Part shown: one piece after another, positions 231 through 24,303 of the stretch
Position numbering within the stretch: the first letter of the stretch is position 1
Layout of the letters: every line of letters begins with the position of its first letter
Assembly: GCF_011630105.1 (NCBI RefSeq)
Contig: NW_022686322.1
Span: 3,767,837-3,798,982 of the forward strand
Reading direction: 5' to 3'
DNA from: Anneissia japonica
Taxonomy: Eukaryota
DNA length: 31,146 nucleotides
Program-made: the position numbers and the translations under genes
The notes under the pieces: generated by a model
What the model was told of the DNA's origin: nothing
The model's input: the letters and a program-made list of their open reading frames with translations, nothing else
The model's database searches: none

Positions 231-1832
231 ATTAACAGCATATGGCAATTGCATATATCTAGCTCTATCACACGTTTTCGTTTTACAGTACAGATCGGTT
301 ATTATTATATTAATATGTATGCTAAAAAGCTAAAATAATGGAAAATGGCAGCCATTTTAAATTGTAATAGCTCAAAAATGTGTACAATATTTAGTTAACT
401 GTTGTTGTCATTGTTATGAGTGAATTTCCAATTGAATACTGCATTTTAATGACATAAACTTACAGTATTAGTGAACATTTTAGGAAAAAATGGCGGCCAT
501 TTTGAAAAGGCCCCACTTACGTATGAAAAAAAAAATGTTGCACTTATTCTTTTGATTTATCTATGGTTACTCTACATCATATCCAATTTTTTAAAAATAT
601 AGCAAAAAAAATGCAACCAACCAAAGTTTGCTGGACTTGCTCTTAGGCCTATCACAAAATGAATCCTTATAAATCAAAAACTTATGGGCTAGGTGGCATG
701 CCTATATTAATTATTATAGCCTATCACAACGGCATGATTATGCTTTCATTTTCATTTTTGTCAAAATATACTTTCCATCTAATAAATTTCATATTAGATT
801 AATTACTGTAGGCCTGTTACTAATGATCATATTGGAAATTTGAATAAGAAAATAATATGTCGTCGATTAACGGACGGAAAGTATGATGATAGGCTGTAGC
901 CTAGGCCTACAGCTAGCAGTAGACCGTACCGTACCTGAGTTACCCCTGGTATAAATTTTTATAAAGGTATTTGCAGCAAAATGTCTCTGAAAACTATTTT
1001 CGATTTGATTTTTGTTGGAAGGTAACAGCTTTCTTTATCATTAAAGTAAGCTTTTAATGATTTTTCCCAATCTTTGGAAATCTGATGACAAGACAATAAA
1101 GACTTTAACATCGCCCTCTACCAAATTCACTCGCATCATTTTTCAAGCAATAGATATGACGTAATTATTTCGCGCACTGATTGGTGAATAGTGGTCAACG
1201 CCCCTTATTGATAATTAGCATCAAGGTTAGGTAAACCTGGAGGCCTGGCGTTGCGCCATCATGTGAAAGTTGCTTTGCTTGTTGTGTTCGGTGAATGTAC
1301 GGACCTCGGTGGCCTTTAGAACATTTCTTTTTCTTGAATTAGAGACAATTACGGTAAGATTTAATTAATGATAAGTATAAAGATATATGATATTTAATTA
1401 GTTGTTAAATTAATAAAAAAAAAGATCAAGATACATGTAAAATTTTTTAAAAATGACGTGATCTTTTACGTGGGCCAACCAGGTTAGTCCACACCGCGAT
1501 ACTGATACTGTGACTGTGTATCGAATGACTCAGGAGTGCAGACGTAAGCTGTTTTCCAGGGGATTGATTGCACCACAGTTTCGTCAGCTTAGCATAGCCT
1601 ATATATGAAGGAATTTGTAGTGGTTACCGAAAGCACTACACTTACTGCACTCCAGCAACAACACTTCTCAGGGAAAAGACGGCTAGGCCTGGGTTGTATG
1701 GGATTGAATTTGCTTGTGATCTGTTGAATATACGGTAAAGTACAGCATAGAAACTTCACTAAAGTTATCTAGGAGGGGGACAGTGTTATACTCTAGGTCT
1801 AGGCTAGGCCTAATCTAGTCCTATACCTTTTC

Positions 1833-1925
1833 AGGGGCGGATCTAGGATGAAATTTGGGGGTGGGGGCATCACTCGGTGCGGCCACTCGGTGCGAAGCAC
1901 CGAGGGTGGGGTGCCCCTCCTAATA
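1833..1925. repeat. G-rich dispersed repeat (GGGGCGGATCTAGGATGAAATTTGGGGGTGGGGGC…) with related copies at 18236-18410 (inverted pair) and 31053-31146
   Basis: A shared GGCGG(A/C)TCTAGGA(T)AAATTT…GGGGG head; the reverse complement of 18360-18410 (CAGGGGCAGATCCAAAATGTTTTTAAACGGGGGATGGGGGCC) aligns to 1833-1875. Confidence 0.45.
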
Positions 1926-2582
1926 TTAGGAAATTTTTTGAGAAAAGTAACACTAAGACAGTCGTACACGGCATTCTAATCTAAAGGATTAGATCGTGTT
2001 GCTAAATTGCTATGGAGTCGTGATAAATATATTTGATAATTCGTAAACATGTTTTCTGCCAAATGACTCTAATGACTGTTGTAGGTGCGATATATTATTA
2101 TATATTATTATGTTGCATATTATGTTGTCATTAATTGATTATATCAAAGAGTATAAATAGAACAAGAGAGCCAACAACGCTCATTGAGAGCGTAAAAAAA
2201 CGATACGCCCTACGCAGCTAGTGTAGGACGCCAACTAACGCTTGTATGTGTTTTATTACCCAGTACTCCACCGTGCACGTTCGGCTTATCTGTTTATCTG
2301 TTCTCCACAAGATATAGTACTTTTGTAGAGGGCGGTATTTGCGCTTGTATAAAGCTGACCTAAAGTAGATCTATGTAAACATAAGATGATAAACATAGTG
2401 TAGGGCCTATGATAGTTGCATGGAGGAAATTTTTCCCCTCCATGATAGTTGAAAGAATTTATACATACAATGCTGTGCAAATAACAATATGTGTAAGAAA
2501 AACATAATATAATGCTTGCAATAGATATTGGAGAAACCTATTTTTAATACTTTACACAAACAGCGAGTTTATTATACAAATG

Positions 2583-2668
2583 AATTATTATTATTAATAT
2601 TATTATTATTATTCATTATTATTATTATTATTATTAAAAATATATTTATCATCATCATCATCATCATT
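2583..2668. repeat. (ATT)n followed by a (CAT)n microsatellite
   Basis: Read directly from the sequence. Confidence 0.9.
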
Positions 2669-3360
2669 ATGTTTTTAGCCATTATAAATTCTCATTCCTT
2701 CTTATGCAGTTTACACAATCAAACTAATATGAATGCAAAGGTGGTCAGTATATAAGAGAGCAATATATTTTATTTGTGCCATCAAACAATTATATAGTAA
2801 ATATAATATATAAGCTATAACAATATTAATAACAACAATGACAATATTAATAACTTACGAGTAGTCATGCTCTTCTATCCATTTTTTTCCATTTTATTTA
2901 TCAAATATGATATTCAAAAAATATTAATGATAATATTAATAGTTACAATTATAATATTTTCAGATTCAATTAGCATCAATCTGTCTGCATATATAGCATA
3001 TATTCAACATAGCTTTATCAATGCTCTTAAATTCATTTTTTTAAATTTTCAAATATATTTTAAACATATTAATTGTAATAAATCAGTCGTGGGTTTGATT
3101 CCTATCTGAAACAACCGTGATTTTTTATCAAGTATTTGAATTGTACTGAGCATTTAGTACTATATAACACGTCATGTGGGCAAACATCATTTCGTGAAAT
3201 TTTATTGGAGGAAATAATAAAATTCTAGTGTAGTACTTTAATAAACATCCAATAATGGTTTCAAGCATTAGCCACATATCGTGTATGCAAAAATTCATAA
3301 CCAAGGTTTTGGAAAATCAAATTTGCTTGTTTACAAACTTTTTTACAACGATTTTTAATA

Positions 3361-3427
3361 ATAAAAATTATGATAATAATAGTAATAATAATAATAATAA
3401 TAATAAACAATAATAATAACAATAATG

Positions 3428-3488
<61 letters not shown>

Positions 3489-3510
3489 TAATAATTGTTA
3501 TTATTATAAA
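3361..3510. repeat. (TAA)n microsatellite, about 150 bp
   Basis: Read directly from the sequence. Confidence 0.9.
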
Positions 3511-4140
3511 CCAGCGTACTATGCGGTTAGACTCTTATAACTTATGCAAGAGTAAGTCAATTGAGAGAGCAGCTTAGCAGTCGGCTAATACTACTTTAGT
3601 CGGCTTTGTACTCACCGCTCTTTTTCTTTAGGGAAATGAAAGAAGGAGCAATTTGGGGTTTTTTGGCTGTTATTATAACAATTAAAAGCTGAACACCTTA
3701 ATGCCATACTGCTAGCTGTACGTCTGCACACGCGCATTGAACCGCTCATGCGTGACGTTCACCCGCGTATATGTTATACGTGCACAGAGTTTTAAAAGTT
3801 TTCTACTTACTGAGTTCATAGCGGGCGTGCTTCGATCGTGCTCTATGGTAAAAAATTAATATACAACCGTTAGTGGGCGTCCTACACAGGTGTGACGTTT
3901 TTACGAACGGGACTTTGCTCTCTTGTTCTATTTATACTCTTTGATTATATGCTCATAAATAAAATTCGCAAATACCAATGTACAGTAACTATACCAAAAG
4001 ATTGTACTTTTATTTTATCATTTAGTGACCACATGTTCACCACGAGCCTTGTTGATGCGCGCCAGCGTAATCAACAAAAACCAACACCAACTTAAGTACT
4101 ATAGTAATAAATAATAAATAGGCCTAGATATGATCTTTTC

Positions 4141-4207
4141 TCTTTTTTCTTTGTTCTCTATCTCCCCCCCCCCCCCCCTCTCTCTCTCTCTCTCCCTTTT
4201 TTTTTTG
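4141..4207. repeat. Poly-C / (CT)n / poly-T low-complexity tract
   Basis: Read directly from the sequence. Confidence 0.85.
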
Positions 4208-5217
4208 GGCCTCCCCTGGATCCACCCCTGCTTTTAAAGGTAGGCCTAGCCTCACTACAGCCTATGTTGTTGTACTAACTAAAGTCTATAAAAGTATCCA
4301 ATGATGATTTTACCATCATTTTGAGACAAAAAATTTTGCCCTCCTAGCTAGGCCTAGGCCTAGTGATATTCCTTTGGTTGTTAAAATGAAGCATAGGCCT
4401 AAGTATACATACTGTTCCAATGTAATATTTTCTGCATAATATTCAAGTTTATAAAATAATAATTATTGGTATTTATTTAAATAAATTTGTGCAGTAATAT
4501 TTTCATAAAATTAGTACCAAAAATTTTACAATTTTTAGTTGGAAAACAGTTGCATTGGAAAGAATATTAATTATCTAGACGTCATCAATGTCATATAAAA
4601 ACCAGACAAAAAATATGCTCTATTTATTGGATACGTATTACCATGTAAAACACACTCATGCAAATATAAGTTTTTTATATTAAAAAATGCAACAATTAAA
4701 TATTTTCCTTATATCTTAGCCCTCCTCAAGCTGTTTTATTATTTTAAAGAATATTGCTGCCATAGCAATATTTAAATGAAGTTATTGACTCTCATTCACT
4801 GCTCTAGGGTAATGAAAGCGTCATGTATACTATGCAACAATGCCGTTCGTTTATATAGATTACAGATTGTAGTATTGCAGTGAAGCATGGTCCTATTCAT
4901 CTCACAGCTAGGCTATGGGTGAAATGAAATAGGAATTAGATATCAAGGATAATTTGTTTGATTGTATCCTAATGGAAAATACATCAGAAAATGAAAGGTT
5001 TCAAAATATGATTAATAGGAAGTATTACCTGACACTACAGAAACTATCTCTTGTGAATGAAACAATTCAGGTATTTTTTTTAAAAACCTGTACTTAATTT
5101 TAGATTTGAACAATAATATTCTTGTGTAAATATTGTTTTGTGTTAAATGCAAAACATCTTTTTTGTTCTGTTTTTTTTTAATACCTGCAACTAGAAAATA
5201 TTTTGTTATATATTATA

Positions 5218-6180
5218 CTGCACAAGCATATTAAAGCCCCATTCCTGGCAAAACTTCATTTTTAAAGAAAAATCTGATTTCTATATACCGGTATGTTAGA
5301 AAAATTTATATTATGAAATTGCTAGTTTAACTGAATTTAGACAATTCCTAAACATGAAAAAAATGCAAAATAAGACTCAAATTTTATTTTTTGTTTCCCA
5401 ATCCATTCAAAAAATAATAGAGGATGATTTTTTTTATGTTTCATTTTGCGATAGGTCTATCGAAATATTTTAGGCACCGGAAAAATTAGCCTAGCAACAC
5501 CTCTATTTAGGTTCTGTTATCAGACATAAAAAATGGCCGACGTGTTAATTTCTGTTTCTGGTGTTATACATATATTATAATATTTTATTGGAATTATTTC
5601 AAACTTGTTAAAAAATATTAACTGAGATTTTAACAATTAAACAAACTTACCTCAAACCTAATTGATCGAACACAGTGTGCAAGATGCGCGGTACAAAAAC
5701 TAATCTCATAGGGTGGGCACACTTTATTTATTGCTCACAATTGTATCGGTGATGTAAACAGGAACAGTAAAACAGATTAATTAATATTTTTATTTAATCA
5801 TTGTGGGATGAATTAAAATATCTTATCATTAGAGTTCATGGCATTTGTGGGCAAGATAAAAAATAAAGAATGCGGCGGTTTCGCGAACGCTTGACTTCAT
5901 AAAGTATACACAAAAAGCAACTGGCGAGAGCATTCCAGCTTGTGTGATCTGCAACCTCTGAATTTGCCTACACTAGTAACGAAAAAGTCGTGGAGAAAAT
6001 GGTAATCTCCTATGAGAAATAGTCTCTACTTATCATTTTTTTTTCTCCTTTAGTGTAAATCTAAAATTCATGGCATTTTTTTTTTATGGTATATAAATAA
6101 TTAGAGTAATGCATGCAAATTGTTCTGAAAAAAACTTTTTGAAAATGAAATTTTGCCAGGAATGGGGCTTTAATGTGCAC
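5218..6180. mobile_element. Non-autonomous DNA transposon (MITE-like), about 963 bp, with 45-bp terminal inverted repeats and TA flanks (Tc1/mariner-type target-site signature)
   Basis: 5218-5263 CTGCACAAGCATATTAAAGCCCCATTCCTGGCAAAACTTCATTTTT pairs with the reverse complement of 6135-6180 (GTGCACATTAAAGCCCCATTCCTGGCAAAATTTCATTTTC). TA at 5216-5217 and 6181-6182. No ORF of 60 aa or more lies inside. Confidence 0.6.
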
Positions 6181-6279
6181 TAAACTTTGGTCCCCAATGC
6201 AGTACACGTGAAACTAATTGTTAAATAGTAGTAAAAAAAAATACACTTGCTTGGAACAATTATGATCATTTTTATGCCC

Positions 6280-6664
6280 AAGGCAGTTCATGCAAATGAA
6301 AATAATTGTTAGGATACATAGTCAAAAATGTGTAAACAAATTGCCTAGTTAAAGTTGTCCAGGTTCAGGGTTGTACTGTAGCTGTAGAAAACTAGGGATT
6401 GGTGGTATACATTTTGAGGGTGGGTGGGTGATAACATAAACTCTAAGAGAGTGTTTTAACGATATGTGCAAGAGGGTTAATAAAGGTGGGTGGAGGGCTA
6501 TGAAATTAGCTGTAGACTGGGTGGAAAACTTCAAAGTTGGGTGGCCCCGCCCAACTCCTCCTACCATAATTACATCCCTGAAGGCAGTACATGAAAATGA
6601 AAATAATTGTTAGGATACAAAGTCAAAAAAATGTATAAACAAATTGCCCAGTTCAAGTTGTTCA
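6280..6664 (+). repeat. Tandem duplication, unit about 301 bp, 1.3 copies, ending about 110 bp upstream of the MVP ATG; the unit contains a G-rich tract and a CCCCGCCC GC box (6546-6553)
   Basis: 6280-6361 (AAGGCAGTTCATGCAAATGAAAATAATTGTTAGGATACATAGTCAAAAATGTGTAAACAAATTGCC…) recurs at 6581-6664 with about 8 differences. Confidence 0.7.
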
Positions 6665-6775
6665 CGTAAGGGCACTCATTACTACAAGGTTGAACATTCT
6701 CTTTTATTTTATTGATTTGAAAGTTAAACAAGCTTATTTTTCGCCTTTTAATATTCACAGTTTCTGGAATAAAAT

Positions 6776-6924
6776 ATGGAAAAAGGCAAACGTACAACCG
6801 CTGGAAGTGATGACTCCATCTACCGCATTCCCCCTTACTATTACGTTCATGTACTAGACCAAAACAGCAATGTGACTAGGGTGGAGATCGGACCCAGGAC
6901 TTACATAAGACAGGATCACGAAAG
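6776..6924 (+). CDS. MVP: Major vault protein, coding exon 1 ([49 protein letters not shown] + split Arg codon)
   Basis: ATG at 6776; translation collinear with the vertebrate MVP N-terminus (…[35 protein letters not shown]); donor AAAG|GTTAGT at 6925; phase 2. The exon is preceded by a pyrimidine tract + CACAG, suggesting an upstream non-coding exon. Confidence 0.85.
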
Positions 6925-7300
6925 GTTAGTACCTGTAATTCTTTAATAATTAATCAATAAGAAACAATTTCTTAACAAACATTTTGTACATTTCCTAATA
7001 CTGGATTTTTAATAGAATCTGAAAACTCTCAAAGTGTTTAATTGTTCATATGCTTCTATTAAAGTGCTGTACTTATACTGTACATAACTGTATAATTCAG
7101 CTTTTGCTTATTTACAGTCTTTATTGAAGGTCTATGAAAAAGCATGGTATGTGAGTGATTGGCAAGAAAAGCATTCTCTCTATCTAACCTTTAATTAGCA
7201 AAGCATTTAACTTAATTTATAAAGCAAGTGATTTAATTGTTTAATTTGACGTTGGAGAATAATCCAGAACTCACAGTGTCATTGGGCTAAATTGCATACA

Positions 7301-7405
7301 TACAATAATTATATAATTATAATAAAAATTATAATTATAATAATAATTATAATAATTATAATTATAATAATAATTATAATTATATAATTATAATAATTAT
7401 ATAAT
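7301..7405. repeat. (ATAATT)n-like microsatellite in MVP intron 1
   Basis: Read directly from the sequence. Confidence 0.85.
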
Positions 7406-7444
7406 TGCATACATGATGCATGACCGTAAAGAGGCACTTACTGT

Positions 7445-7600
7445 ATAGTAGCTTCATTTAAGTCCTTATCCGAGAAGACTGGGTTCTGCCAACTGAACCC
7501 TGGGCTAGGACTGGCTCGAACCAGTGATGATGTTAAGGCTGTAGTTAGCAGCATTCTTGCGTTACTGCTCAACCACTCAACTTGGTCACTCAACACAAAC
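7445..7600 (+). repeat. SINE-like dispersed repeat copy (5'-truncated) in MVP intron 1
   Basis: ATTTAAGTCCTTATCCGAGAAGACTGGGTTCTGCCAAC…GTTAAGGCTGTAGTTAGCAGC…CAACTTGGTCACTCAAC matches the reverse complement of 23935-24060. Confidence 0.5.
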
Positions 7601-7704
7601 ACTGTATCTTACAACAATTATTTCTTATATAAAATAATTATTTTTTGAAAGATTAAATTGAAAGAAAAATCATTACAAATATTTTGTTGGATTTTGAAAC
7701 ACAG

Positions 7705-7900
7705 GGTGATATTTGGGCCACAGAAGATGATTATGGTGCCACCAAGGAATTATTGCATCATTGAGAATCCCTCTCAGAAGGACAAAGACGGTGCTGTCGT
7801 ACTGGACAAGCATGGACAGGTCAAACTCAACCACGCTGACCAGGAAATCCGTCTAGCTCAAGATCCATTTCCTCTGTTCCCTGGAGAGGTCCTGAAACAG
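7705..7900 (+). CDS. MVP: MVP coding exon 2 ([23 protein letters not shown]…[17 protein letters not shown])
   Basis: Acceptor ACAG|G at 7703-7704 completes the split Arg codon; matches human MVP …VLFAPMRMVTVPPRHYC…[19 protein letters not shown]; donor CAG|GTACAT at 7901. Confidence 0.85.
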
Positions 7901-8017
7901 GTACATAGTCCTTGAGAGGAATTGTGATCATGATTTTAATTAATTCCTTGTGGGAAAATAGATTGCAAATTTTGAAGTACTTTATTATGACAACGTTGTT
8001 ATATTTTGTTCCAACAG

Positions 8018-8368
8018 GCAGTTAGTCCTCTGAAAGTTGTGCCAGCCAATTGCGCTCTTCGCCTGAGGGCTGTCTTGGACTATGAAGACCCCAGCGGAGA
8101 GAAGAGAGTTGCTGGCGATGAATGGCTCTTTGAAGGGCCTGGTACATATATCCCACGCAAGGAGGTAGTTGTAGACGAGACTGTCAGGGCAACTATCATC
8201 AAGCCCAACCAGGCTATTAAGCTACGTGCTCGCAAGGAGACCGAAGACCGTGAGGGTAATGCGAGGGTCACGGGGGAGGAATGGCTTGTTAAGAAAGTTG
8301 GTGCGTACTTGCCAGGCGCATACGAGGAGGTCGTTGATGTTGTGAATGCTTATGTGCTTACTGAGAAG
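8018..8368 (+). CDS. MVP: MVP coding exon 3 ([50 protein letters not shown]…[32 protein letters not shown])
   Basis: Acceptor CAACAG|GCA at 8016-8017; 351 nt, phase 0; strong identity to human MVP repeat domains ([22 protein letters not shown]…[16 protein letters not shown]); donor AAG|GTTTGT at 8369. Confidence 0.88.
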
Positions 8369-9416
8369 GTTTGTGATAATTTATATTATAGTGATTGGTA
8401 ACCATGGTAATGGTATACAACATGGAAAAGTATCTTATTTCCATGATTTAAAAGAAATAATTATGTTGAGGATTAGAAATAGAACTTTAAACTGATTGAG
8501 GAGAATGTACCTGTTACATTAATATTTTGCATGGGGTATGTAGAACATTAACATTTATGATATAAATTTGTGATAGTATCTAAATTTGATTAAAACAAAT
8601 TGCTGTGTAGGCTAAATTACATAGAAATGTAGAAATATTAAAATATTATTGCTAAATTTCACAATTGTCAATACCACATATAGGTAAAGAACTTAGGCAA
8701 TTCATCAAAAAACTGTAAATATAAATATAATAAATTTTGCACAACAAAAATGTTAGTTTTTATTTTCGCAATTGCAGTTTTAATTTTGTTTTCCTCACCA
8801 AAAAACGTATGTGAATGTGACACTAACTGTTGAGAGGAAGTGTGGTTGCATAAAGACATCCAAGTGAACCTTTATTCATCCTGTATTCGGGTCTGTATCA
8901 CTGCAGTGTCAGAGGAAATTATCATTCTCAGGGTCACAATATTTATGGCCACATCCTGAACTGAAATTGAATTATGTGACAGATAGAAATTTTTTTAATT
9001 TTTTGCAAGTGTGAATGTGTGCTTTTTATATTACCATTATAGATCAAACTGTACATTAAAATTGATTAAATTGTTATGAGTGTGAATGGATGACAATTTA
9101 TAAGTTAATAGCAGTTAAAGTGTATAAAAGTACATTGTTAAACACTTCATGAAATCATCTAGTTACACTAGACTTTTTTATACCTTGTTTCGCGAACTTA
9201 GATCGTCAGAGGAGGGTGGAAAAAAGATAAATATTTAATTTATTTTCTTATTTAGCAAATAGTTTTGCGAAAAAACATCAAGACTGAGGAGAAAATAAAA
9301 CTTTGTTGGTGAATTTAAACAGTGTCATTAATCAGTAAAATTAATCAAATCTCTAATTTGATTAATTATTATTCAAAATTTGTGTTATCAATTGTTTGTT
9401 CTTCATTTTAAAACAG

Positions 9417-9542
9417 AAAGCACTTCACCTGCGTGCCAACCGTACATTTACTGATGCCAAAGGTGTGACGAGAAAGAATGGTGAAGAATGGTTGGTGAAG
9501 ATGGAAGACAACGAGGCACACATTCCTGATGTCTACGAAGAG
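9417..9542 (+). CDS. MVP: MVP coding exon 4 ([42 protein letters not shown])
   Basis: Acceptor AAACAG|AAA at 9415-9416; 126 nt; matches human [42 protein letters not shown]; donor GAG|GTGGGT at 9543. Confidence 0.85.
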
Positions 9543-10021
9543 GTGGGTTACACATCAATCAAAAACGTCCTTTTGGAAAGCAGCAATGTGGCTTTAGGCT
9601 GTCAATTGTTAAACCTCTTGTTTGTGCCCTTGAGTATGTCACTTTACCTGCATTACTTGTCTCCACACAGGAGGTAAATTTGTGCCTGGTATGATAGGAA
9701 AGTAATAATGCGTACATAATTAGAGCATTACTGGAACGATTCCTTACAAAGAGGAGACTTTTTTTCACATCCTGTGTGGTTATGTCAGATCAGGTCACGT
9801 CACGTCACTCTTATAGTTACAGACCATGGGGACGCTTCGATGATAACGAAATGACAATGGTGTTTGCTTATTAAATTTAAATCAATTTGTTTCGTAAGAG
9901 TACAATTTTTTAAAAAGAAAGTGAAAATACAATATCAATAAAGCCCATAGAGCACAGACATTTGAATTAATATACATACTTGAACAATTACTATGTTTTA
10001 GAAAGTTAACTATCATATACA

Positions 10022-10440
10022 ACATTTTTGATAGTAATTATTACAAATATTAATGAATAATAATATTTATTTATTAAAATTTATTACAGTAACTATTAGA
10101 GATATTAATGAATATTAACATTTATTTATATTTATATTAGTAATAATTAGAGATAATATTCAATATTAATACTTATTTATATTTATAATAGTAATTATTA
10201 GAGATAATGAATATTAATATTTATTTATTTTTACTTATAATAGTAATATTTATTTATATTTATAAAGTAATTAGAGATATTAATTAATATTTATATTTTT
10301 AATAGTAATTATTAGAGATATTGAAGAATATTAATATTTATATATTTATATTTATAATTTATTAGAGATATAAATGAATATTAATATTTATTTATTTGTA
10401 TTTATAATACTAATTATTAGAGATTAATGAATATTAATAT
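10022..10440. repeat. AT-rich minisatellite (about 55-60 bp unit, about 7 copies: …ATTAGAGATATTAATGAATATTAATATTTATTTATATTTATAATAGTAATT…) in MVP intron 4
   Basis: Repeated TTAGAGATA…GAATATTAATATTTATTTAT blocks read directly from the sequence. Confidence 0.7.
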
Positions 10441-10453
10441 TACTCCTTTACAG

Positions 10454-10564
10454 GTTGTTGGCTTGAAGGATATCATTACCCTAAATAATCGACAATACTG
10501 TGTGATCTTGGACCCAGTTGGTGACAATGGTAAGCCACAGCTCGGACAAAAGAAACTTGTCAAG
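10454..10564 (+). CDS. MVP: MVP coding exon 5 ([37 protein letters not shown])
   Basis: Acceptor TTTACAG|GTT at 10452-10453; 111 nt; matches human …[24 protein letters not shown]; donor CAAG|GTATGT at 10565. Confidence 0.85.
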
Positions 10565-10750
10565 GTATGTAATCGACTAGTTACCTTAAATTTTAAACCT
10601 AAATACAAAATACTAGTAATTATTAATCATTATATATTATATTTATTTTAGTTTCTGATTAACAATTATTTGTAATAAAAAATAATTTTGGGAGTTCAGT
10701 ATTACATTATATAAAGAGTTCAGATAATATTCTTTTATTTTTTGTTTCAG

Positions 10751-10876
10751 GGAGAAAAATCTTTTTTCATGATGCCTGGTGAAAAGCTTGAGAAAGGAAT
10801 TCAAAACGTGTTTGTTCTTGGAGAAGATGAGGGCATTATCTTGCGGGCAAAGGAAGCATTTAAGGACAACCTTGCG
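10751..10876 (+). CDS. MVP: MVP coding exon 6 (GEKSFFMMPGEKLEKGIQNVFVLGEDEGIILRAKEAFKDNLA)
   Basis: Acceptor TTTCAG|GGA at 10749-10750; 126 nt; matches human [33 protein letters not shown]…; donor GCG|GTAAGT at 10877. Confidence 0.85.
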
Positions 10877-11434
10877 GTAAGTTGCCAAATCGCCAAAATT
10901 CTCCCTAAAATTTTTTTTTTACTATTGTCCAAAAATAATCCATTCTAATTCACTGACAAAATAATTTGATAAGGACTTTAGGTTTTGCTTTTGCAGGGAA
11001 GAAGATCTAATACAGTTTGCACTGTCATTTGAGACTATCTTTGGGACCTGAAAATTTGGGGTTTTCTCAGAGTTTTCGATCTTTACATTGAGGGTTAGCT
11101 TTAGTTAATAGCTTGAAGATTGTTAGAGGGATCTCGAAGGAGGGTACTTATCTAGACAGATACTATAGAAAATCTTCCAAAAATGTAATTAAAACTTTGT
11201 TTAACTCATTTAAATAGATAATCAACTTTTAATGAACACATATAAAAGTCTAATTATTTTTTTGCTGATTTATATACCTTTTGGTACAAAACTTCTTAAA
11301 TTAATCAGTTTAAAAGCCCTGGTCCATCCAAAAATATAAAAATTTTATTATGTATTTTCTTGTTTTAATTCATTAATTGAAGGCTAATTAAACTTTTAGT
11401 AGTCTTGGTACTGAGATTTCAGTTGTATTTATAG

Positions 11435-11587
11435 AAGGATTGTGAACGCAAGCCGGGTGATAAATGGATGATGCGTGGACCAATGGAATATGTGCCACCC
11501 GTGGAAGTGGAGGTACTGACCAAAAGGAAGGCAATCCCATTGGATGAGAACGAAGGTATCTATGTGAGGGACACAAAGACAGGAAAG
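11435..11587 (+). CDS. MVP: MVP coding exon 7 ([51 protein letters not shown])
   Basis: Acceptor TTTATAG|AAG at 11433-11434; 153 nt; matches human …[44 protein letters not shown]; donor AAAG|GTAAGT at 11588. Confidence 0.85.
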
Positions 11588-11932
11588 GTAAGTTGAATAT
11601 ATATCAGCCAGTGGTGGGAGGGAGTTATAGTTGTAATAGGGGATCTAACTGATGGAATGTTATTGCATAAAGTTAGTGTACGGTTTAGAGTTCTAAACTA
11701 ACAGAGCAGATTTGGGTTCTGCACCTGACACTGTAAACAAAGAGTGGAATTCAAACCTATGACAATATAACAATTTGAGAGCGTCGACCCAGTGTTTCCA
11801 AAATTACCTGACATTCAAGTATTTACTGGGCCCAGCAGATCTTTTCTTTTGAAACTGTTTGAAATTTATACCAATTTTAATATAGGTTAACCAATGTCAT
11901 TTTTTTTTTATCTTACTTATTGTCTTCTTAAG

Positions 11933-12165
11933 GTACGTGCTATTACCGGAATTACTTACATGCTAAACCAGGATGAGGAACTTTGGTGTAAAGAACTGTC
12001 ACCAGCTGTTGAAAATCTACTGATGAGTATGAAAGACCCTATTGCTGATCGTGGTTCTCGGGGCGCACCAGTGGTCGCAGAGAGAGAGAAGACAAAGGTG
12101 GTCACCCTTCGTGTTCCCCATAATGCAGCTGTACAGATATATGATTACAAGGAGAAGAAAGCCAG
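11933..12165 (+). CDS. MVP: MVP coding exon 8 ([30 protein letters not shown]…[18 protein letters not shown] + split Arg)
   Basis: Acceptor TTAAG|GTA at 11931-11932; matches human [30 protein letters not shown]…[19 protein letters not shown]; donor CCAG|GTATGT at 12166; phase 2. Confidence 0.85.
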
Positions 12166-12800
12166 GTATGTTTTTTGTCAGGCTTTTTGTTTATGTATTA
12201 TATGTCATACCCGAGATCGAGATAAAAAAAATTCTGAGGCTGAATGTGTATCCTAGGCTTGTAAGTCTGCATTAAAGGAGTGGGGTCTGGGGGTCCACAA
12301 TTGAAATTTCAATTCAAAAACTGCAGTAAAATTGATCACATCTTTATCTATGATTATCTTCTGCTGGATGGTTCACCCTCTTTAAATATGCTCAAATAAA
12401 TAAGTAAATAAATTAGCAGCTGAATGTAACTATCCTTATGTAAACTCAGCCAATTTTTTCATCTATAGATTTTTTTTCTTTTTTGCTATAATAAGAATTT
12501 AACCCATTTTTAATTTTAGTATTTATACTATAGCCTAAAATACCAATAGTTAATTCTTATTGTATAAACACATGAAAAAAATTAAACTCATGAATACAGT
12601 ATTAATGATTCTTTCTGAACTAAAGTTAATTACACTATTTTATTTCTGCATTTTTTCTTGTTCAAATAGTTTCTTCAAAGATGCTAGGAATAACTGATAT
12701 ATATATTATTATTATTATGGAACTCTGGAATCCTTTTACCTCCATACCTACATTGTCTTTCAAATTGTTTAGTGTTGTAACAGTGTTATTCTTTATATAG

Positions 12801-12998
12801 AGTTGTGTTTGGACCAGAGCTGGTGATGCTTGGTCCTGATGAGCAGTTTACTCAACTGAGTCTGTCGGGAGGAAAGCCAAAGAGACCAAACGTCATCAAA
12901 TCCTTGTGTCTGTTGCTGGGACCTGATTTTTGCACAGACATCATCGTTATAGAGACAGCAGATCATGCTAGGCTACAGCTCCAGCTGTCTTATAACTG
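12801..12998 (+). CDS. MVP: MVP coding exon 9 ([66 protein letters not shown] + split Trp)
   Basis: Acceptor TATATAG|A at 12799-12800 completes Arg; matches human [29 protein letters not shown]…[32 protein letters not shown]; donor TG|GTAGGT at 12999; phase 2. Confidence 0.85.
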
Positions 12999-13825
12999 GT
13001 AGGTTTTACATAAATATTCATTGCCATCATCCTCTCAAAGTTAATTCTTTAGTGAATATGTGATCGTAATGATACATATTACCACAGCCTCTATGACTTT
13101 CATATTATAACACCAGGCACTGGATCAAACATGTCCAGGGGAGTATTTCTACTGGAAATTCTAGTTTAATTCATTGTCAGACATTTGTATGTATATGATG
13201 TGATATAAAATATAATATGTTAGGCTTATATAGTGCCTAATGCCAACAAGGGCTCTAAGCGCTTAATTTATACCCCCGGTCATTGGATCAAGCACATAAT
13301 ATGGAACACATACTCAGCTCCCTGGGGAGAATTCCATAATGTTGCAGCTGTAATCAGCGCATTTTGTGTTTGAACCTACCAAGTAGCCACTTGTACCCCT
13401 GGGTGGAGAGAGACAGCTGTAGGTAAACTGCCTTTTCTAAGGACACAAGCAAAATTCCCGAAGGATTGATCCTTGACCTCTAGGTTGAGAAACAACTCCT
13501 GTTGGATAGAGGCAACAAATTTTAATAATTTCACTTGCCGAAGGACACAGCAAACCAGGGGACAACTTCAAATCTCAGCTGCTGGGCCAAACACTCTTAA
13601 ATTATATAATTAAATTTCACATACAAAATATAGTAACTGATAATAATTATAAATATAGTACAGTATTTTCATTTACTGTTATTTTATTATTTATGCAATT
13701 TGTCGATATGATTGTCTAATTGTGTATGAATTTCGAACACTGAACCCGATTCCCTCAGCTAAAATTGCCTACATGGTATATGTATACAATTTGTAATGTT
13801 AATAGCAATGTATTTCATTTATCAG

Positions 13826-13970
13826 GCATTTTGAAGTCAATGATAAGAATGATGACAATGATGCAGCTAAATTGTTCAGCGTGCCAGACTTTGTCGGAGA
13901 CGCTTGCAAGGCTATTGCCTCTCGAATCAGAGGTGCTGTGGCCGGTGTCCAGTTTGATGATTTTCACAAG
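13826..13970 (+). CDS. MVP: MVP coding exon 10 ([49 protein letters not shown])
   Basis: Acceptor ATCAG|G at 13824-13825 completes Trp; matches human [48 protein letters not shown]; donor CAAG|GTAAAT at 13971. Confidence 0.88.
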
Positions 13971-14756
13971 GTAAATAAAAGAAATACGCGCCCGATAGGT
14001 GCACGAGTATACTGCAGAAACTAGGTCAAAATTACTCTATCGGATAAGGTGCTAATCATCAGCAGTTGGTCATCTGTCAAAACATGGGACTAATTACCAA
14101 CTTCTGTATAAAACGACATTCACACTGTACTTGGCATGCCTGTAAAATGAAATGAACCTTAACACGTTCCAGTTTACAGTAAAATTCCATCAACCATAAC
14201 ACATTCCATTTTACAAAAAAATTCCACTACCACATCATAGAGTATATCTGTGCAAGCGTAGTATACTCAACAACTAATAATTGTAAGGTCACCATCAACA
14301 AGTTTCTTGAGTTTTTAATGTGATTAATTTTTATCCAGTAAGTTGTAAAATTATAGAATAATTGTTGAAATCTGAAATGTGTTACAGTTCAGGAATATAG
14401 ATTTTGTAATATGAATTTCAATCATTATTATACCATCTTGTTTCAAGTCACCATGACTATGTCAGAGGTCAAGGTATATGTCTAATTATTTTCTACATTT
14501 TATGGCTGTTGGTCTGTACAGTGTTTAATATACCCAATGCATTTTTCTTATAAATTTAAAATTGTGCAGAAAATTGCATGGAAAATAGGTGTGCAAAGCA
14601 ACATGTAATAATTGTTTGTGTGTATCAGCCCTTATTTTAAAAATTTATGTCAAAGCCTAATTATTTTTCAGCAGGGTCACACTTTATGCTTATATTGTGT
14701 CCTGATCTTCAGCATCAATGTGGAAACCCTATATTTATTATAATTGCTTTCTTCAG

Positions 14757-14968
14757 AATTCTGCCAAAATCATCCGTGCATCAGTATTTGGGTTTGACGA
14801 CAAGCAGAAGGTCCGTGATCGATTCCTGTTCCCTCAGAACAACCTGGTTATAACCAGTATTGATATCCAGTCAGTGGAACCAGTTGACCAGCGTACCAGA
14901 GACGCTTTGCAGAAGTCTGTACAACTGGCGATTGAGATCACAACCAACTCCCAGGAAGCCGCAGCCAG
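14757..14968 (+). CDS. MVP: MVP coding exon 11 ([70 protein letters not shown] + split Arg)
   Basis: Acceptor CTTCAG|AAT at 14755-14756; matches human NSARIIRTAVFGF…[48 protein letters not shown]; donor CCAG|GTCAGA at 14969; phase 2. This is the exon that is duplicated at 19390-19601. Confidence 0.88.
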
Positions 14969-15471
14969 GTCAGAGTTCAGACATGATTGTTCACTTATAT
15001 TCCATTCATATTCCAGTTTTGCTTGGTATTTCATACAGACAACATGTACACTTGCTATGCAGGGTAGAACGATGCTCTATTAACTCAGCCTCTTTATGAG
15101 GCTCAAGCTGTGGAGTTGTTTTGAGGTATGAGAAATAATTTGGGAGTCTGACAATGTTTGAAAACCAGATGCTAAGATTGGAAGGCAACCACCTGTAGCA
15201 CTGTTTACTGTTGTGGAGTGATCAACAGACTTCCTCTTGTTCAGCTAGATAATTTAACAACCATTATTCATACATGGCCTTATTCTAATCAATATATAAG
15301 CTGAAGATGTCTTTACCCTCCCAACAATCAGTTTAGAATGTATTTGCCATTTTACATAATATGTGTGTGTGAAAGTGCATGCATAATGCATTGTATATTG
15401 GCTGTCTGTCAGAGTACTACTACATTATTGAATTTTTAATTGATCTATTTGATATTGTTCGGTACATTTAG

Positions 15472-15715
15472 ACACGAAGCTGAAAGACTTGAGCAGGAGG
15501 CAAAGGGTCGTCTAGAGCGTCAAAAGATTTTGGACGAAGCTGAAGCTGAGAAAGCACGCAAGGAACTGCTGGAGCTACAGGCCAATAGTGCAGCTGTTGA
15601 GAGCACTGGACAGGCAAAGGCTGAGGCTCAGTCCCGTGCTGAGGCTGCTAGAATTGAAGGCGAGGCAGCTGTTGAGCAGGCCAAGCTGAAGGCAGAGGCT
15701 GCTAAAATTGAATCT
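15472..15715 (+). CDS. MVP: MVP coding exon 12 ([82 protein letters not shown])
   Basis: Acceptor CATTTAG|A at 15470-15471 completes Arg; matches human [80 protein letters not shown]; donor TCT|GTAAGT at 15716. Confidence 0.85.
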
Positions 15716-16000
15716 GTAAGTTAACAAAATTCTTCTAACTGGCATTTTGTCCAAGTAAGTAAAGCAGCTTAGAGCCTGCTGCACACGAGTAAACAGACTT
15801 GCAACTGAAGTTATTGTCTTGTGTGTGGTGAAATTAGGAACCTTTTGAACCTGCATGACTGGAAATAATTTCAGTAACGCTCAAAAATTGTGTTCCTTGT
15901 CAATGGCGTATTTCAAGGAGGTGCCTGGGCACCCCTACCTTTTTGTTCAAATGTGAAAAAAATAATAGAAAATGAATGGCAGTAAATGGCAAACTAAGTT

Positions 16001-16265
16001 AAAGGCCTGTTTATACTAGCAACGATAATTATAAAATGCTAAAAAGCAATTGTTCCTATAGAAAATAAAAGAAATGAAAGAGGTTTTCACAATAGCACGC
16101 TTTGATAACGATTTATCATGTGTACGATAAAAAAATATTTTCGTATACACGATAAATTGTTATCGAATCGTGCTAGTGTGAAAACTTCTTTTATTTTCTC
16201 TATGAACAATTGCTTTATAGCATTTTATCGTTATCGTTACCGTTGTAAGTATAAACAGGCCTTTA
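16001..16265. repeat. Near-perfect 265-bp palindrome (two arms of about 130 bp, no spacer) in MVP intron 12; hairpin/foldback element
   Basis: Left arm AAAGGCCTGTTTATACTAGCAACGATAATTATAAAATGCTAAAAAGCAATTGTTCC…; the right arm is its reverse complement with a few mismatches, ending …TAAACAGGCCTTTA at 16265. Confidence 0.75.
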
Positions 16266-16442
16266 CTTTATACATTAACAGGCATTAATTTGTCATTAAT
16301 ATGAACAATTCTTGTTTTTTTATTTATATATTGCTTCTACTAATCTCATAGAATTGCATTGGCTGACAACTGTTGGGTGGAATGAGTGGCTGGCTTTCGA
16401 TATGACATTATTGTGCCATAATATGAGGAAATCACAGATAAC

Positions 16443-16848
16443 ATATGTGGCAAAGACAAGCCAAATCAGTCACTCGTCGCAAAAATCGATTTTGAGTTAT
16501 TAATACAGTGTTAGAGAGTAAAATAATATATATAAAATGGTAAAAAAATCATAGTTACATGCGTTTAACCACACAGCTGTTTAAAGAACAATATATGAGA
16601 AATTAGCCATCAAAGGTTATGATTTCAGGCATTTCTCATGCAGAAACTATCTTTAAATCCTTAAAAAGTATTGTTTTAACATTGAAAATTGGGAAAATAA
16701 CAGCATGAATGATGTGTAGATATATAAAGGTTAGTTTAGTGCAATAAAATAGATTTTTAAAAATTTGACATTCCAGCATGTTTTTTGCCATTTTCTCTCA
16801 AACACGATTTGCGACGAGTGACTGGTTTGGCTTGTCTTTGCCACATAT
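16443..16848. repeat. Inverted-repeat pair (about 45 bp arms, about 325 bp spacer) in MVP intron 12; MITE-like
   Basis: 16443-16483 ATATGTGGCAAAGACAAGCCAAATCAGTCACTCGTCGCAAA equals the reverse complement of 16808-16848 (TTTGCGACGAGTGACTGGTTTGGCTTGTCTTTGCCACATAT) with 1 mismatch. Confidence 0.6.
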
Positions 16849-16925
16849 TAATTTTAGTGTGGACACAGGTTTACGTGTTACACAGTCATCAAATAACATA
16901 ACTTCATTTACATTGTATCTTACAG

Positions 16926-17237
16926 CAATCAGAACTCGAACAACTGACAGTTGCGAGAGAGGCAGAGAATAAGTACATCAGCCAGCAGAACGAGATGGAA
17001 ATCAGCAAAACTAAAGAAATGAGCGACATCGAGACGGCTAAATTCGATAGCATGGTGTCGTCCATCGGTGCAGATACCATCAGGGCCATTGCAACATCTG
17101 GACCAGAGATGCAGGTGAAGTTGCTGCAATCTCTTGGCCTCAAGTCTACCTTGATTACAGATGGTACCAGCCCCATCAACCTCTTCAATACTGCCAACGG
17201 ACTTGTTGGTGCTCTTGCGCCACCATCAAACAATTAG
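16926..17237 (+). CDS. MVP: MVP terminal coding exon 13 ([17 protein letters not shown]…[52 protein letters not shown])
   Basis: Acceptor CTTACAG|CAA at 16924-16925; matches human …[48 protein letters not shown]; stop TAG at 17235-17237. The CDS total is 2556 nt (851 aa + stop). Confidence 0.88.
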
Positions 17238-17268
17238 GTTCAAAGCTTTTTTAACAGCAATTGATGGC

Positions 17269-17274
17269 AATAAA
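17269..17274 (+). other. MVP: Candidate MVP polyadenylation signal AATAAA, 32 nt past the stop
   Basis: Hexamer AATAAA read directly; further AATAAA copies lie at about 17366 and 17767, so the 3'UTR end is ambiguous. Confidence 0.45.
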
Positions 17275-18718
17275 ATATATTTCTAGATGTATTGGAAAGG
17301 AACATTTGAATTATGTTTTACCAATGGGTGTTTTATAAATTCATTAGATTTTTATTGGAAAGGAAATAAAACACTTATTAAAAAATCGGCTAACTGTGCT
17401 AAATTGCTGTATTAAAAGATAAATTTATTAGTTTTGTTAGTTTGGTGTTTGTAAAAATGAACTTTATATTTGTAGATAAAATTATCAAGGATGATATCAA
17501 AAACAGTTGTAGATTGGTTAATTTTGTTTATGATGATTGCTTTTTAGGTCTCCATATTTGTAGGATGTTTTTGGTCAATATGAAAATGGATTATATAACA
17601 TTTATATATAAAAGGAAGATAAATTTGTTTTATCAAATGATTGAGAAAATTTTGATTTTGTAATACTGTAATTAAATTCCTATTTTAATACAGTCATGAA
17701 CATTTAAATGTGAAATTGTGCCATATATTATAACAGAAATAATGTTTATTAAAATTGCTGTTAAAGAATAAATACAATATATTTTATATATCTATATAAT
17801 ATAAAATGCAGGCAGATGAATTATGCATTGACAGGCCTGTGTATTGATATTACAGAAGTTTGAATTAATGAGTTTTTAGTAATAAAGTATCAATTTAGAA
17901 AAAAAAATGGAAATATGTTTTCCACATGATCCAAAGTAAGTGTTCTATACAGATATTTATTATCATTGTTCTAATAATACTATATGAATTCTGTACATAT
18001 ATTGTTTGTATTATTTTGCATTACAAATTTCTTGAGTTTAGACCAATTGTGAGGGCCCAAATTTAAAAAATATACTCAAGAGAAGTATTAATACTTGTGT
18101 TTTGTTGTATGTGTTTTGTAGTCTAAACCCTCTCATTCGTAGTAAGTGCTTCAGGATAGTTTAATTGATGAGTATAACCTCTTTCAAACACAGTTAGGTC
18201 CCTCTGGTCCTATTACAACAAGGCATGACCACACCCATGAGATTGAGACAGGTGCGGATCCAGTAGGGGAACCCCTCCCACTTTTCCACTAAATTTCAAG
18301 GCATATCAATGTTATGTATTGAAAATACACACTACTCGTTTATCTATTCTGAGAATGTTGTGGCCCCCATCCCCCGTTTAAAAACATTTTGGATCTGCCC
18401 CTGTGAGAGGTATATATATCATGGTCTTAGCAATGAAATCGTATATCCTTTTTTCAACAAAAAAACATTACACATTTTAAAAAGTCAATCATTCAAAATA
18501 CTGTATTATATCATGTCTGAAGTGCAAGTCTTAAATTTTAAAAAGAAATATTTACAAGTCTTGCTATTACATATTTACATTAATTAAAATGTCCATAGTA
18601 GAAAACACACCTGTGTCTGCTGCGATATAAACATGTTTTGTAAAAATAAACTTTCTGATAAAATTTACAAAATGCATGAGGAGAAGCAGCAAGTTTTACT
18701 TTTCACATCAAAGTCAGT

Positions 18719-18955
18719 TTAGCTATCTGTAATAGCAACATCCTTTGTCAGCGAGATTCCAATTTCTTTAAAGTCTTCTGCAACACTCCTGATCATAGCA
18801 GCTGCTTGATGTTTAGAAACTGCAGGTACTGATTCTGTTCCTGGAATCCCCTTTCGTTTGGCATCCAACTCCAATAAAGCCTCCATTTTCATTGCAATTT
18901 GTTTGCACTGTTCTTGTCTTTGTTTCATTCTAGCCAGCTTTGCATCTTTCTGTGC
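18719..18955 (-). CDS. 3'-terminal coding exon of an unidentified gene (AQKDAKLARMKQRQEQCKQIAMKMEALLELDAKRKGIPGTESVPAVSKHQAAAMIRSVAEDFKEIGISLTKDVAITDS*)
   Basis: A - strand ORF preceded by a good acceptor (pyrimidine tract + TTTTAG|GCA at 18957-18956) and ending in TAA at 18721-18719. The coiled-coil-like sequence is not recognised as any family. Upstream exons would lie beyond the chimeric junction at 19116. Confidence 0.4.
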   Translation of the reverse strand, partial: AQKDAKLARMKQRQEQCKQIAMKMEALLELDAKRKGIPGTESVPAVSKHQAAAMIRSVAEDFKEIGISLTKDVAITDS

Positions 18956-19115
18956 CTAAAATAAAAAGGAATGCAAGATAGGAAATTACAGTACACGTTT
19001 GCATAAACGATCTACAGTATTTGAAGAAGTTTTTATCTAAAATTTATTTAGTAATACAGTAATAACATTTTGCTAGGCCTATATCTGTGTGTGTGTGTAT
19101 ATATATATATATATC

Positions 19116-19153
19116 CTGTCTCTTATACACATCTAGATGTGTATAAGAGACAG
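19116..19153. other. Nextera/Tn5 mosaic-end junction adapter (ME-rev + ME-fwd), a library artifact embedded in the assembly
   Basis: Exact 19-mer CTGTCTCTTATACACATCT (19116-19134) is followed immediately by its reverse complement AGATGTGTATAAGAGACAG (19135-19153). This is the circularisation junction of Nextera mate-pair libraries, and it is not a natural metazoan sequence. Confidence 0.92.
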
Positions 19154-19775
19154 GTGTTTAATATACCCAATGCATTTTTCTTATAAATTTAAAATTGTGC
19201 AGAAAATTGCATGGAAAATAGGTGTGCAAAGCAACATGTAATAATTGTTTGTGTGTATCAGCCCTTATTTTAAAAATTTATGTCAAAGCCTAATTATTTT
19301 TCAGCAGGGTCACACTTTATGCTTATATTGTGTCCTGATCTTCAGCATCAATGTGGAAACCCTATATTTATTATAATTGCTTTCTTCAGAATTCTGCCAA
19401 AATCATCCGTGCATCAGTATTTGGGTTTGACGACAAGCAGAAGGTCCGTGATCGATTCCTGTTCCCTCAGAACAACCTGGTTATAACCAGTATTGATATC
19501 CAGTCAGTGGAACCAGTTGACCAGCGTACGAGAGACGCCTTGCAGAAGTCTGTACAACTGGCGATTGAGATCACAACCAACTCCCAGGAAGCCGCAGCCA
19601 GGTCAGAGTTCAGACATGATTGTTCACTTATATTCCATTCATATTCCAGTTTTGCTTGGTATTTCATACAGACAACATGTACACTTGCTATGCAGGGTGG
19701 AACGATGCTCTATTAACTCAGCCTCTTTATGAGGCTCAAGCTGTGGAGTTGTTTTGAGGTATGAGAAATAATTTG
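19154..19775 (+). repeat. 622-bp duplicate of MVP intron10-exon11-intron11 (copy of 14521-15142); chimeric assembly segment or haplotig fragment
   Basis: Collinear identity at a constant offset of +4633 bp. The identical ORF-track entries (14647-14853 = 19280-19486; 14718-15083 vs 19351-19716) confirm this. There are 3 substitutions (14897 C>G, 14906 T>C, 15066 A>G). The left edge is the Tn5 junction adapter, and the right edge switches abruptly to RMND1 sequence. Confidence 0.88.
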
Positions 19776-19817: not shown

Positions 19818-20327
19818 ATGCAATTTAAGATGTCGTCTTCATTGAATAATCTGTCAATAGTCTTACCAAGATGGATGACAAAAGTCTGGCAGAAAACATC
19901 AATTGGGATAACGGCCATTAGTCAATCAATGCATTGTTACAGATTGAACAATCATCACAAACAAAACCTACTACAAAGTAGTATTAAAATGTATTCATCA
20001 AGTTATTCAAGGAGGTTCTCATATGAAAGGCATCAAATCATCCCCCATAAAATACCCTGGAAAATACCAGTACTAAATTTTGCAAATATAAAGTTATCAT
20101 TAATCAAGAATCAGTATTCACTCAGCTGTGTGCGAAAGCAAAACTTTTCTTCCAAGTCAACGTCGGGCAATACAACAAATGCCAACACAGATCCACTCAA
20201 CAGACCGATAGTTTATGCCATGAAACTTAAAAAAGGCACAAGTAATAAAGCAAATCGGAAAGGACAGAAAATGAAGATAGCAAAACATAGAACAAAGAAA
20301 CCAGCCAGATTAGCAAAAGACACAGAG
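19818..20327 (+). CDS. RMND1: RMND1 (DUF155) homolog, first coding exon, start uncertain (MQFKMSSSLNNLSIVLPRWMTKVWQKTS…RLAKDTE); basic N-terminus free of acidic residues, consistent with a mitochondrial presequence
   Basis: The ORF is open from 19761, but 19761-19775 lies inside the chimeric block. The first ATG beyond it is at 19818 (next at 19830). Donor GAG|GTGAGT at 20328; phase 0. The 5' boundary of this gene is compromised by the misjoin. Confidence 0.55.
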
Positions 20328-20453
20328 GTGAGTTTATAATGTGGCGACCCCCACTCCCCTGGCGACCCCCACTCCCCTCTCTCCACAAAAACATTGAAAA
20401 CAATTATAAATATAATTTTTTTTTTTAATGTATTTTTGGGACATTTTCTTCAG

Positions 20454-20562
20454 GGACTTGGAGTTGTGACTGCATTTTCTACTGCGGAAGAATACAACTT
20501 GGAACATCTAAGTCTCGATCTTCAAGCACAAGGTTTGTTCAGAGAAGCTTTTATGCCACAAG
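20454..20562 (+). CDS. RMND1: RMND1 coding exon 2 (GLGVVTAFSTAEEYNLEHLSLDLQAQGLFREAFMPQ)
   Basis: Acceptor TTCTTCAG|GGA; matches human RMND1 …[23 protein letters not shown]; donor CAAG|GTAAAT at 20563; phase 1. Confidence 0.8.
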
Positions 20563-21200
20563 GTAAATAGATGTTCATATTCATTTGTTTTGTTTGTTTT
20601 ATCAGTTTTTGTGTTTAGGAGCATTAAAAATTTACAGATTAAAAATATACTGACACCTTAGTCTGACATGAATTTGAAAAAAAATTAGCATTTTTAATGT
20701 ATATTTGTTTCCCTATTATCTGAAAATTAGAACACTAAAAAAAAAAAAACATTTCTGGTAAAAAATGTATAGATATTTGATTTTGTGAAACATTTAAACC
20801 ATATTTTATTTAATTTTTTTAATTATTTGATAATGGTTTTAAGAAACATATTTGACATAAAATTTTCAAATACTGCAAAATTTGATTAAATTTAATAAAA
20901 CAAAAAAACTAATATTATTAGAAAGTTTATTTATATGCATTTACAGTAAAATGGAAGCAGAGAATGTTTTTGAAATTTATTTTTCTATAATTGTCAGAGC
21001 AGTATAATAATTTATTCATAATTCAATAATTTATATAAATTCCAATATAATGGTGCAGCACTATAAATAATTGAAAAGAAAGTCTTGATTGATTAGTTGA
21101 TTGGTTGGTTAAGGAATATTTTATTCTACAGATAAATTAAATTGTGTTTTATGTGTTTTTTTAATTTTTCTTTTTAAACTCAACTTTTTTGTTTAAATAG

Positions 21201-21322
21201 ATGCACAAGATGTTCTTCATATGCAGGTTTTTGAGAAGTCCGACGATGAAGATGAAGAACCAAGAGAAATCTTCCTGTTTAGGGAAGGTTCAGTTGTCTT
21301 CTGGAATGTTCCTGAACAGCTG
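21201..21322 (+). CDS. RMND1: RMND1 coding exon 3 (DAQDVLHMQVFEKSDDEDEEPREIFLFREGSVVFWNVPEQL)
   Basis: Acceptor TAAATAG|AT; matches human …[23 protein letters not shown]; donor CTG|GTTTGT at 21323. Confidence 0.8.
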
Positions 21323-22470
21323 GTTTGTGTCATAGCTCCCCTTTGTAACATAATTAAGTAAATGTAATTTTTGTTGTATTTTGTATGTGTGTTTTTGTTA
21401 ATACAAATAGTATAGTGGGTTGTGTACTATTTGGTATTTATTCCTAGAAAAATGGATTTAGAAGGTGTGATTGTATAATTTCTTTTTAAAAATTTTATTC
21501 AATTTAGTAAAAAATTCATATACCGCAAAAAAGAACAATATATTTTTCGAAGACTAATGATATATTTAACTATATCACATGTTTAATATTTATGATTCTG
21601 TACATGGTACAACAAATCTCATAACTTTATTTTTTACTTATATCTTGTATCTTGTTTAGAACAGAGCATATATATAAAGAGTTGCGATATTCCCCTCCTC
21701 GGTTTACAAAACACCATCCATTTTTGTGTCCAAATCTTCCCGATAAACACATGCAAAGTATTATGAGTTAGGTACATTACACAGTATTTTCACATGATTA
21801 ATTCTGTTTATGATGTTATTGCTTAATTAATAACTATTTAATATCAAAAGCGTGATTTAGAATTTATCTTTAGAATTTGAATATTTGTGCATGTTCACAT
21901 GCACTTGATAATAAATTTGATTTACATATAAATTATAATTTTGTTAAAGGTTTGTCTATTCTATGACTGAAAAGAACTGCCTTTCTTGTCAAAAATTATG
22001 TTTTGCTCTTAACTTTAGGCCTAAACCATATCAGTTTATATATTGCGGCCAACTGACCTATACCATTTTAATATTTATAAATAAATAATTAAATTAATAA
22101 TATAAGATTTGTATAGGGCTCGCTCATATTCAATTTAAAGAACAATATTGATAATTCAGAACATAGGAATGCACATTGCGTTGGACACATAACACGCATC
22201 ACGTTGGACACGGAATGGCTTCTAAATGATCAATGTCGCAATTCTTTCTACCTATGGCTCTGGTTTAGAATACAGTCTAGCGCCCTCTATAATTTATCTT
22301 GCAAAACTTTTGTTGAAAAATACAGTGATATGATATTCAGATGATAATTATCAATGTATATATTATATACCATCTCATATACGTATTTGATAAACTGTAT
22401 TCTACTTGAGTCGTTAAAAACCAGTGTCAAGTGCTGTCTTCTTTATGTTAATTTTTTTTTCAAATTGTAG

Positions 22471-24290: not shown

Positions 24291-24303
24291 TACATTTCAA
24301 CAG

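Follow-up and report, generated by a model that had tools for sequence, protein, structure and literature searches.

A full-architecture major vault protein gene predicted in the feather star Anneissia japonica, with an apparent mate-pair artefact downstream

The major vault protein (MVP) is considered an ancestral eukaryotic protein that some lineages have lost. Rat and human MVPs have solved structures (PDB 4V60/4HL8, 11dr and 9z4w) and share a layout of nine repeats followed by shoulder, cap-helix and cap-ring. The architecture of the half shells, shoulder and caps is summarised in PMC13347060, which names the waist contacts of human MVP as Asn22, Gln38, Asn40, Asp39 and Arg42 and the lateral R1 pair as Arg9:Gln21. 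MVP sequences are also known from echinoderms (PMC3762200), and the same paper, citing Stewart et al. 2005, records direct studies of sea urchin vaults.

We analysed a 31,146-nucleotide stretch of DNA (the window) from Anneissia japonica, a comatulid crinoid (feather star). An initial annotation, made by reading the raw sequence, had described a complete MVP gene in it. We found that 6776-17237 almost certainly holds a single, intact MVP gene of full architecture, with a product that would, by homology, assemble into 78-mer vaults.

Gene model, introns and conservation in a second crinoid

Using a guide MVP sequence, tblastn identified 13 coding blocks in collinear order along 6776-17237, all on the + strand. 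We rebuilt the model independently, setting exon boundaries by inspecting the splice sites at the flanks of each block. The resulting coding exons are as follows.

6776-6924, + strand: coding exon 1, with the ATG at 6776; aa 1-49 plus 2 nt; N-terminus and repeat R1
7705-7900, + strand: coding exon 2; aa 50-115
8018-8368, + strand: coding exon 3; aa 116-232; two Vault repeats with GDEWL/GEEWLV motifs
9417-9542, + strand: coding exon 4; aa 233-274
10454-10564, + strand: coding exon 5; aa 275-311
10751-10876, + strand: coding exon 6; aa 312-353
11435-11587, + strand: coding exon 7; aa 354-404
11933-12165, + strand: coding exon 8; aa 405-481 plus 2 nt; Vault_4 region
12801-12998, + strand: coding exon 9; Vault_3 / R9 and shoulder start
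13826-13970, + strand: coding exon 10; shoulder domain
14757-14968, + strand: coding exon 11, genuine copy; shoulder end and cap-helix start
15472-15715, + strand: coding exon 12; cap-helix coiled coil
16926-17237, + strand: coding exon 13; cap-helix end and cap-ring region, with the TAG stop at 17235-17237

Under this one set of boundaries, 12/12 introns run from GT to AG, as the initial annotation had claimed for all of its joins. The joined exons form 2,556 nt that encode 851 amino acids followed by TAG, free of internal stops and frameshifts. The exon number, reading-frame length, start at 6776 and end at 17237 that had been claimed were all reproduced exactly. The protein motifs quoted in support were likewise recovered, two in exon 3, one in exon 4 and one in exon 13. 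The last of these, GPEMQVKLL, is present but had been placed in the coiled coil; it actually falls where the cap-helix ends and the cap-ring region starts, from about chain residue 814 onward. The poly(A) site of MVP could not be placed because AATAAA is too frequent in the surrounding AT-rich sequence, where it occurs 125 times.

The introns had been said to carry miniature inverted-repeat elements (MITEs), a minisatellite and a long palindrome. All of these features are present, with 'MITE' as a plausible label for the inverted-repeat elements.

7290-7406: AT-rich microsatellite/palindrome in intron 1
10024-10441, no strand assigned: AT-rich minisatellite in intron 4, with a unit of ~51 nt in 7.8 copies; 12 nt separate its end from the exon 5 acceptor
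15995-16270, no strand assigned: 276-bp foldback palindrome in intron 12, DNA fold of -89.7 kcal/mol
16443-16848, no strand assigned: 406-bp MITE-like element in intron 12, with 41-nt terminal inverted repeats that are 98% complementary

The folding energy of the foldback at 15995-16270 compares with a mean of -22.7 kcal/mol for shuffled sequence (z = -19). One could speculate, tentatively, that the inverted-repeat pair in intron 12 derives from recently active MITE families and that the minisatellite near the exon 5 acceptor has length-polymorphic effects on splicing. The identification of the gene as MVP is unaffected by either reading.

The MVP locus of another crinoid, Antedon mediterranea, contains the same 13 coding blocks with amino-acid boundaries identical to those of Anneissia. 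Nucleotide similarity between the window and the Antedon locus is restricted to the exons and starts exactly at the ATG at 6776. The Antedon gene spans 6.3 kb, in contrast to 10.5 kb in Anneissia, because the Anneissia introns are larger and richer in repeats. When MVP was aligned across 13 species (12 orthologs), all 12 exon junctions were gap-free, with the partial exception of junction 6 (exon 6/7), which sits in a loop whose length varies among orthologs. Together with an identical NCBI model, the exon-only conservation and the junction alignments indirectly back the predicted splicing. Codon comparison of Anneissia with Antedon (Nei-Gojobori, 845 codon pairs) gave dN = 0.053 and dS ~1.8, a value near saturation; the resulting dN/dS of 0.029 indicates that MVP in Anneissia is under strong, long-term purifying selection.

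The surroundings of the gene within the window contain two further genes.

~19832-25145, + strand: exons of an RMND1/DUF155-family gene, downstream of MVP (Pfam, 86 bits)
~26972-30257, - strand: tektin gene (Pfam, 407 bits)

Upstream of MVP (1-6775) we found no recognisable coding sequence. The RMND1-like exons, a tektin exon and the open reading frame at 18722-18955 had 0 tblastn matches within 10 kb of the Antedon gene, so no flanking genes are shared over that distance. Searches of the whole window with Rfam at gathering thresholds and with ARAGORN detected neither a tRNA nor any RNA family, vault RNA included, and the other vault components, TEP1, PARP4 and vault RNA, are absent from the window.

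The predicted protein beside mammalian MVP

Profile and structure searches both place the 851-aa product with the major vault proteins. Its Pfam scores were 236 bits for Vault (4 stretches), 134 bits for Vault_2 (2 stretches), 130 bits for Vault_3 and 65 bits for Vault_4, all far higher than the gathering cut-offs of 23-29 bits for the Vault families. The N-terminal repeat families (PF01505, PF17794, PF17795 and PF17796) cover R1-R9, with no repeat domain missing. The SPFH-like MVP_shoulder domain (PF11978) scored 184 bits at residues 522-640, corresponding to profile positions 1-118 of 118, and likewise exceeds its gathering score by a wide margin. The HMM search thus returned the full repeat set and the shoulder, with no sign of a frameshift.

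Among all PDB chains, the top matches were major vault proteins at E = 0 (9z4w, 11dr, 4hl8/4v60 and others). The collinearity with vertebrate MVP that had been proposed from the raw sequence held up: residues 11-844 of the crinoid protein align with residues 3-851 of a solved mammalian chain at E = 0. Identity over this alignment is 67.3% (561/834 aligned residues, with 15 gap positions): the shoulder and the cap-ring region both stand at 76%, the cap-helix at 67% and the repeats at 65%. Within the repeats, only a 1-residue and a 4-residue gap interrupt the collinearity with solved MVP. Residues 641-844 match chain residues 648-851 without gaps, which accounts for the C-terminal cap-helix (coiled coil) and cap-ring region, and a separate solved C-terminal fragment, 9z5n_B, matches crinoid residues 746-844. 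These matches indicate that the product is a full-length MVP with nine beta-sheet repeats, an SPFH-like shoulder, a cap-helix and a cap-ring, the domain order of the mammalian proteins.

The crinoid protein belongs to the same length class as its mammalian counterparts (851 versus 861-893 aa) and differs from them in several details. Its N-terminus is 8 residues longer, three loops carry short deletions (1, 4 and 10 residues), and it lacks the proline-rich C-terminal tail, ending 7 residues past the aligned region. Taking the R1 contact residues named in PMC13347060, we read their crinoid equivalents off the PDB-chain alignment at an offset of +8. These are N30, Q46, H48, D47 and R50 at the waist and R17:Q29 for the lateral pair. 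Judged by sequence, 6/7 of the named R1 contact residues are retained, including the Asp39:Arg42 salt-bridge pair of the waist, where the two half-vaults join; the only change is Asn40 to His48.

Database searching and string comparison revealed 100% identity over 851 aa to an NCBI/UniRef entry, 'major vault protein-like [Anneissia japonica]'. A public gene model therefore already exists, and the annotation of MVP examined here is correct but not new. The next matches were MVP of Antedon mediterranea at 92% and then, at ~81%, the MVPs of sea urchins, sea stars and hemichordates. The five MVP Pfam families are precomputed on all of the protein matches listed, which number at least 120. Echinoderm and hemichordate MVPs (Antedon mediterranea, Diadema, Acanthaster, Patiria and Saccoglossus) are orthologs of near-equal length, with 81-92% identity.

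A second copy of exon 11 and the alternatives to a single intact gene

The tblastn guide search also detected a second, protein-identical exon 11 at 19366-19608, and self-comparison of the window traced it to a 622-bp block.

14521-15142: segment around genuine exon 11
19116-19153: exact 38-nt Nextera mate-pair junction adapter, CTGTCTCTTATACACATCTAGATGTGTATAAGAGACAG
19154-19775: block 99.5% identical to 14521-15142, holding an intact exon 11 (19380-19591) with its splice sites

Such a block, with exon 11 and its splice sites intact, is what would be expected of a real segmental duplication or of a decaying second MVP copy. We consider this reading very improbable, because the copy starts directly after the adapter, for which no exact occurrence is expected by chance. 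The adapter consists of CTGTCTCTTATACACATCT followed by its reverse complement, AGATGTGTATAAGAGACAG. In a circularised mate-pair fragment, the fragment end is joined via the adapter to the fragment start, and the arrangement here implies a circularised fragment covering ~14521-19115. A (GT)n(AT)n microsatellite immediately precedes the adapter, and GT/AT microsatellites are typical sites of assembly gaps and gap filling. The 38-mer is printed as a mate-pair circularisation (junction) adapter in PMC7357533. The implied fragment size of ~4.6 kb falls inside the range of the six mate-pair libraries of 2-18 kb used for the A. japonica genome assembly (PMC7351957). In Antedon, moreover, exon 11 does not recur in the 10 kb downstream of MVP. 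The three substitutions that separate the two copies of the block are compatible with sequencing errors or with reads that come from the other haplotype. It was the adapter that led us to drop partial duplication of exon 11 as a real event; this junction, the fragment size, the microsatellite site and the single copy in Antedon together mark 19116-19775 as an assembly artefact and not a partial gene duplication. The MVP gene model is untouched by it.

The gene at 6776-17237 could also be intact in appearance only, as an unexpressed or recently inactivated pseudogene. Set against it are an uninterrupted open reading frame of 851 codons with 12 canonical introns, Pfam domains that all score at full length, and a dN/dS of 0.03 against Antedon at near-saturated dS, which speaks for selection acting over a long time. 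The chance that the gene is inactive seems to us negligible, smaller still than that of a true duplication, and it was on the selection evidence that this reading was dropped. We therefore retain the reading of a single intact gene accompanied by a spurious copy of exon 11. The putative ATG of the next gene follows 56 nt after the end of the spurious block.

For curation, a mate-pair adapter was left untrimmed in the public assembly, and the spurious 622-bp block that repeats exon 11 there is a potential pitfall for studies of duplication or exon shuffling.

Vault assembly and significance

By analogy with the mammalian particle, 78 copies of the crinoid MVP would build a hollow vault composed of two 39-mer halves. 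The half shells would meet via their N-terminal R1 domains, the shoulder would serve as a hinge, and the caps would be coiled-coil bundles of cap-helices. From the 67% identity to proteins that assemble in this way, we infer that crinoid MVP would self-assemble into 78-mer vaults. Its expression in the crinoid is a prediction, backed indirectly by the identical NCBI model, the conserved exons and the selection on them.

The initial annotation had further proposed that an intact MVP marks a lineage that retains vault particles. This is reasonable; its novelty does not stand, since echinoderm MVPs and sea urchin vaults are already on record (PMC3762200). Reading of the raw sequence alone sufficed for a correct reconstruction of a 13-exon animal gene. 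An MVP in a crinoid is to be expected and adds little biologically: the gene is ancestral, it is documented in echinoderms, and the exact protein is in NCBI.

Adapter and exon 11 copy downstream of MVP

[quoted passage not shown]

19116-19153, Nextera-type mate-pair junction adapter, 38 nt, exact
19154-19775, 99.5% copy of 14521-15142

The copied block consists of MVP exon 11 together with sequence from introns 10 and 11 on either side. We considered a true duplication of this block and rejected it because the copy adjoins an exact mate-pair junction adapter. We therefore attribute 19116-19775 to a chimeric mate-pair read incorporated in the public assembly; it implies a circularised fragment of ~4.6 kb.

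Repeats and an open frame around MVP

Three further features were found in and around MVP.

6280-6364 and 6581-6667, direct repeat, 87 nt, 88-90% identity
7456-7582 (MVP intron 1) and 23940-24050 (RMND1 intron), inverted pair, 71%
18722-18955, - strand, 78-aa open frame, protein-like composition

The direct repeat sits shortly 5' of the MVP start codon, and the inverted pair reflects a 127-nt piece of MVP intron 1 copied in reverse orientation; both are probably dispersed repeat fragments. The open frame lies in the interval from the MVP stop to the artefact. It did not match any Pfam family and lacked a counterpart in the MVP locus of a second crinoid, Antedon mediterranea (L001), and may be an exon or a chance open frame.

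Neighbouring genes and local gene order

Two genes follow the artefact.

19832-25145, + strand, RMND1/Sif2/Mrx10 (DUF155) family gene, exons
26972-30257, - strand, tektin gene, at least five exons, Pfam Tektin

The concatenated tektin exons score 407 bits against Pfam Tektin, and the match includes the RPNVELCRD signature. Just 56 nt separate the 3' end of the artefact from the putative first-exon ATG of the RMND1-family gene (19832), which makes the sequence of this gene's promoter and 5' UTR unreliable. Whereas the Anneissia window has both genes, the Antedon MVP flanks (L001 1-7055 and 23495-26324) contain neither RMND1 nor tektin; the neighbours there are an LDL-receptor-A/trypsin gene and a COR/Death-domain gene. 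Within 10 kb, the two crinoids thus do not share the same local gene order.
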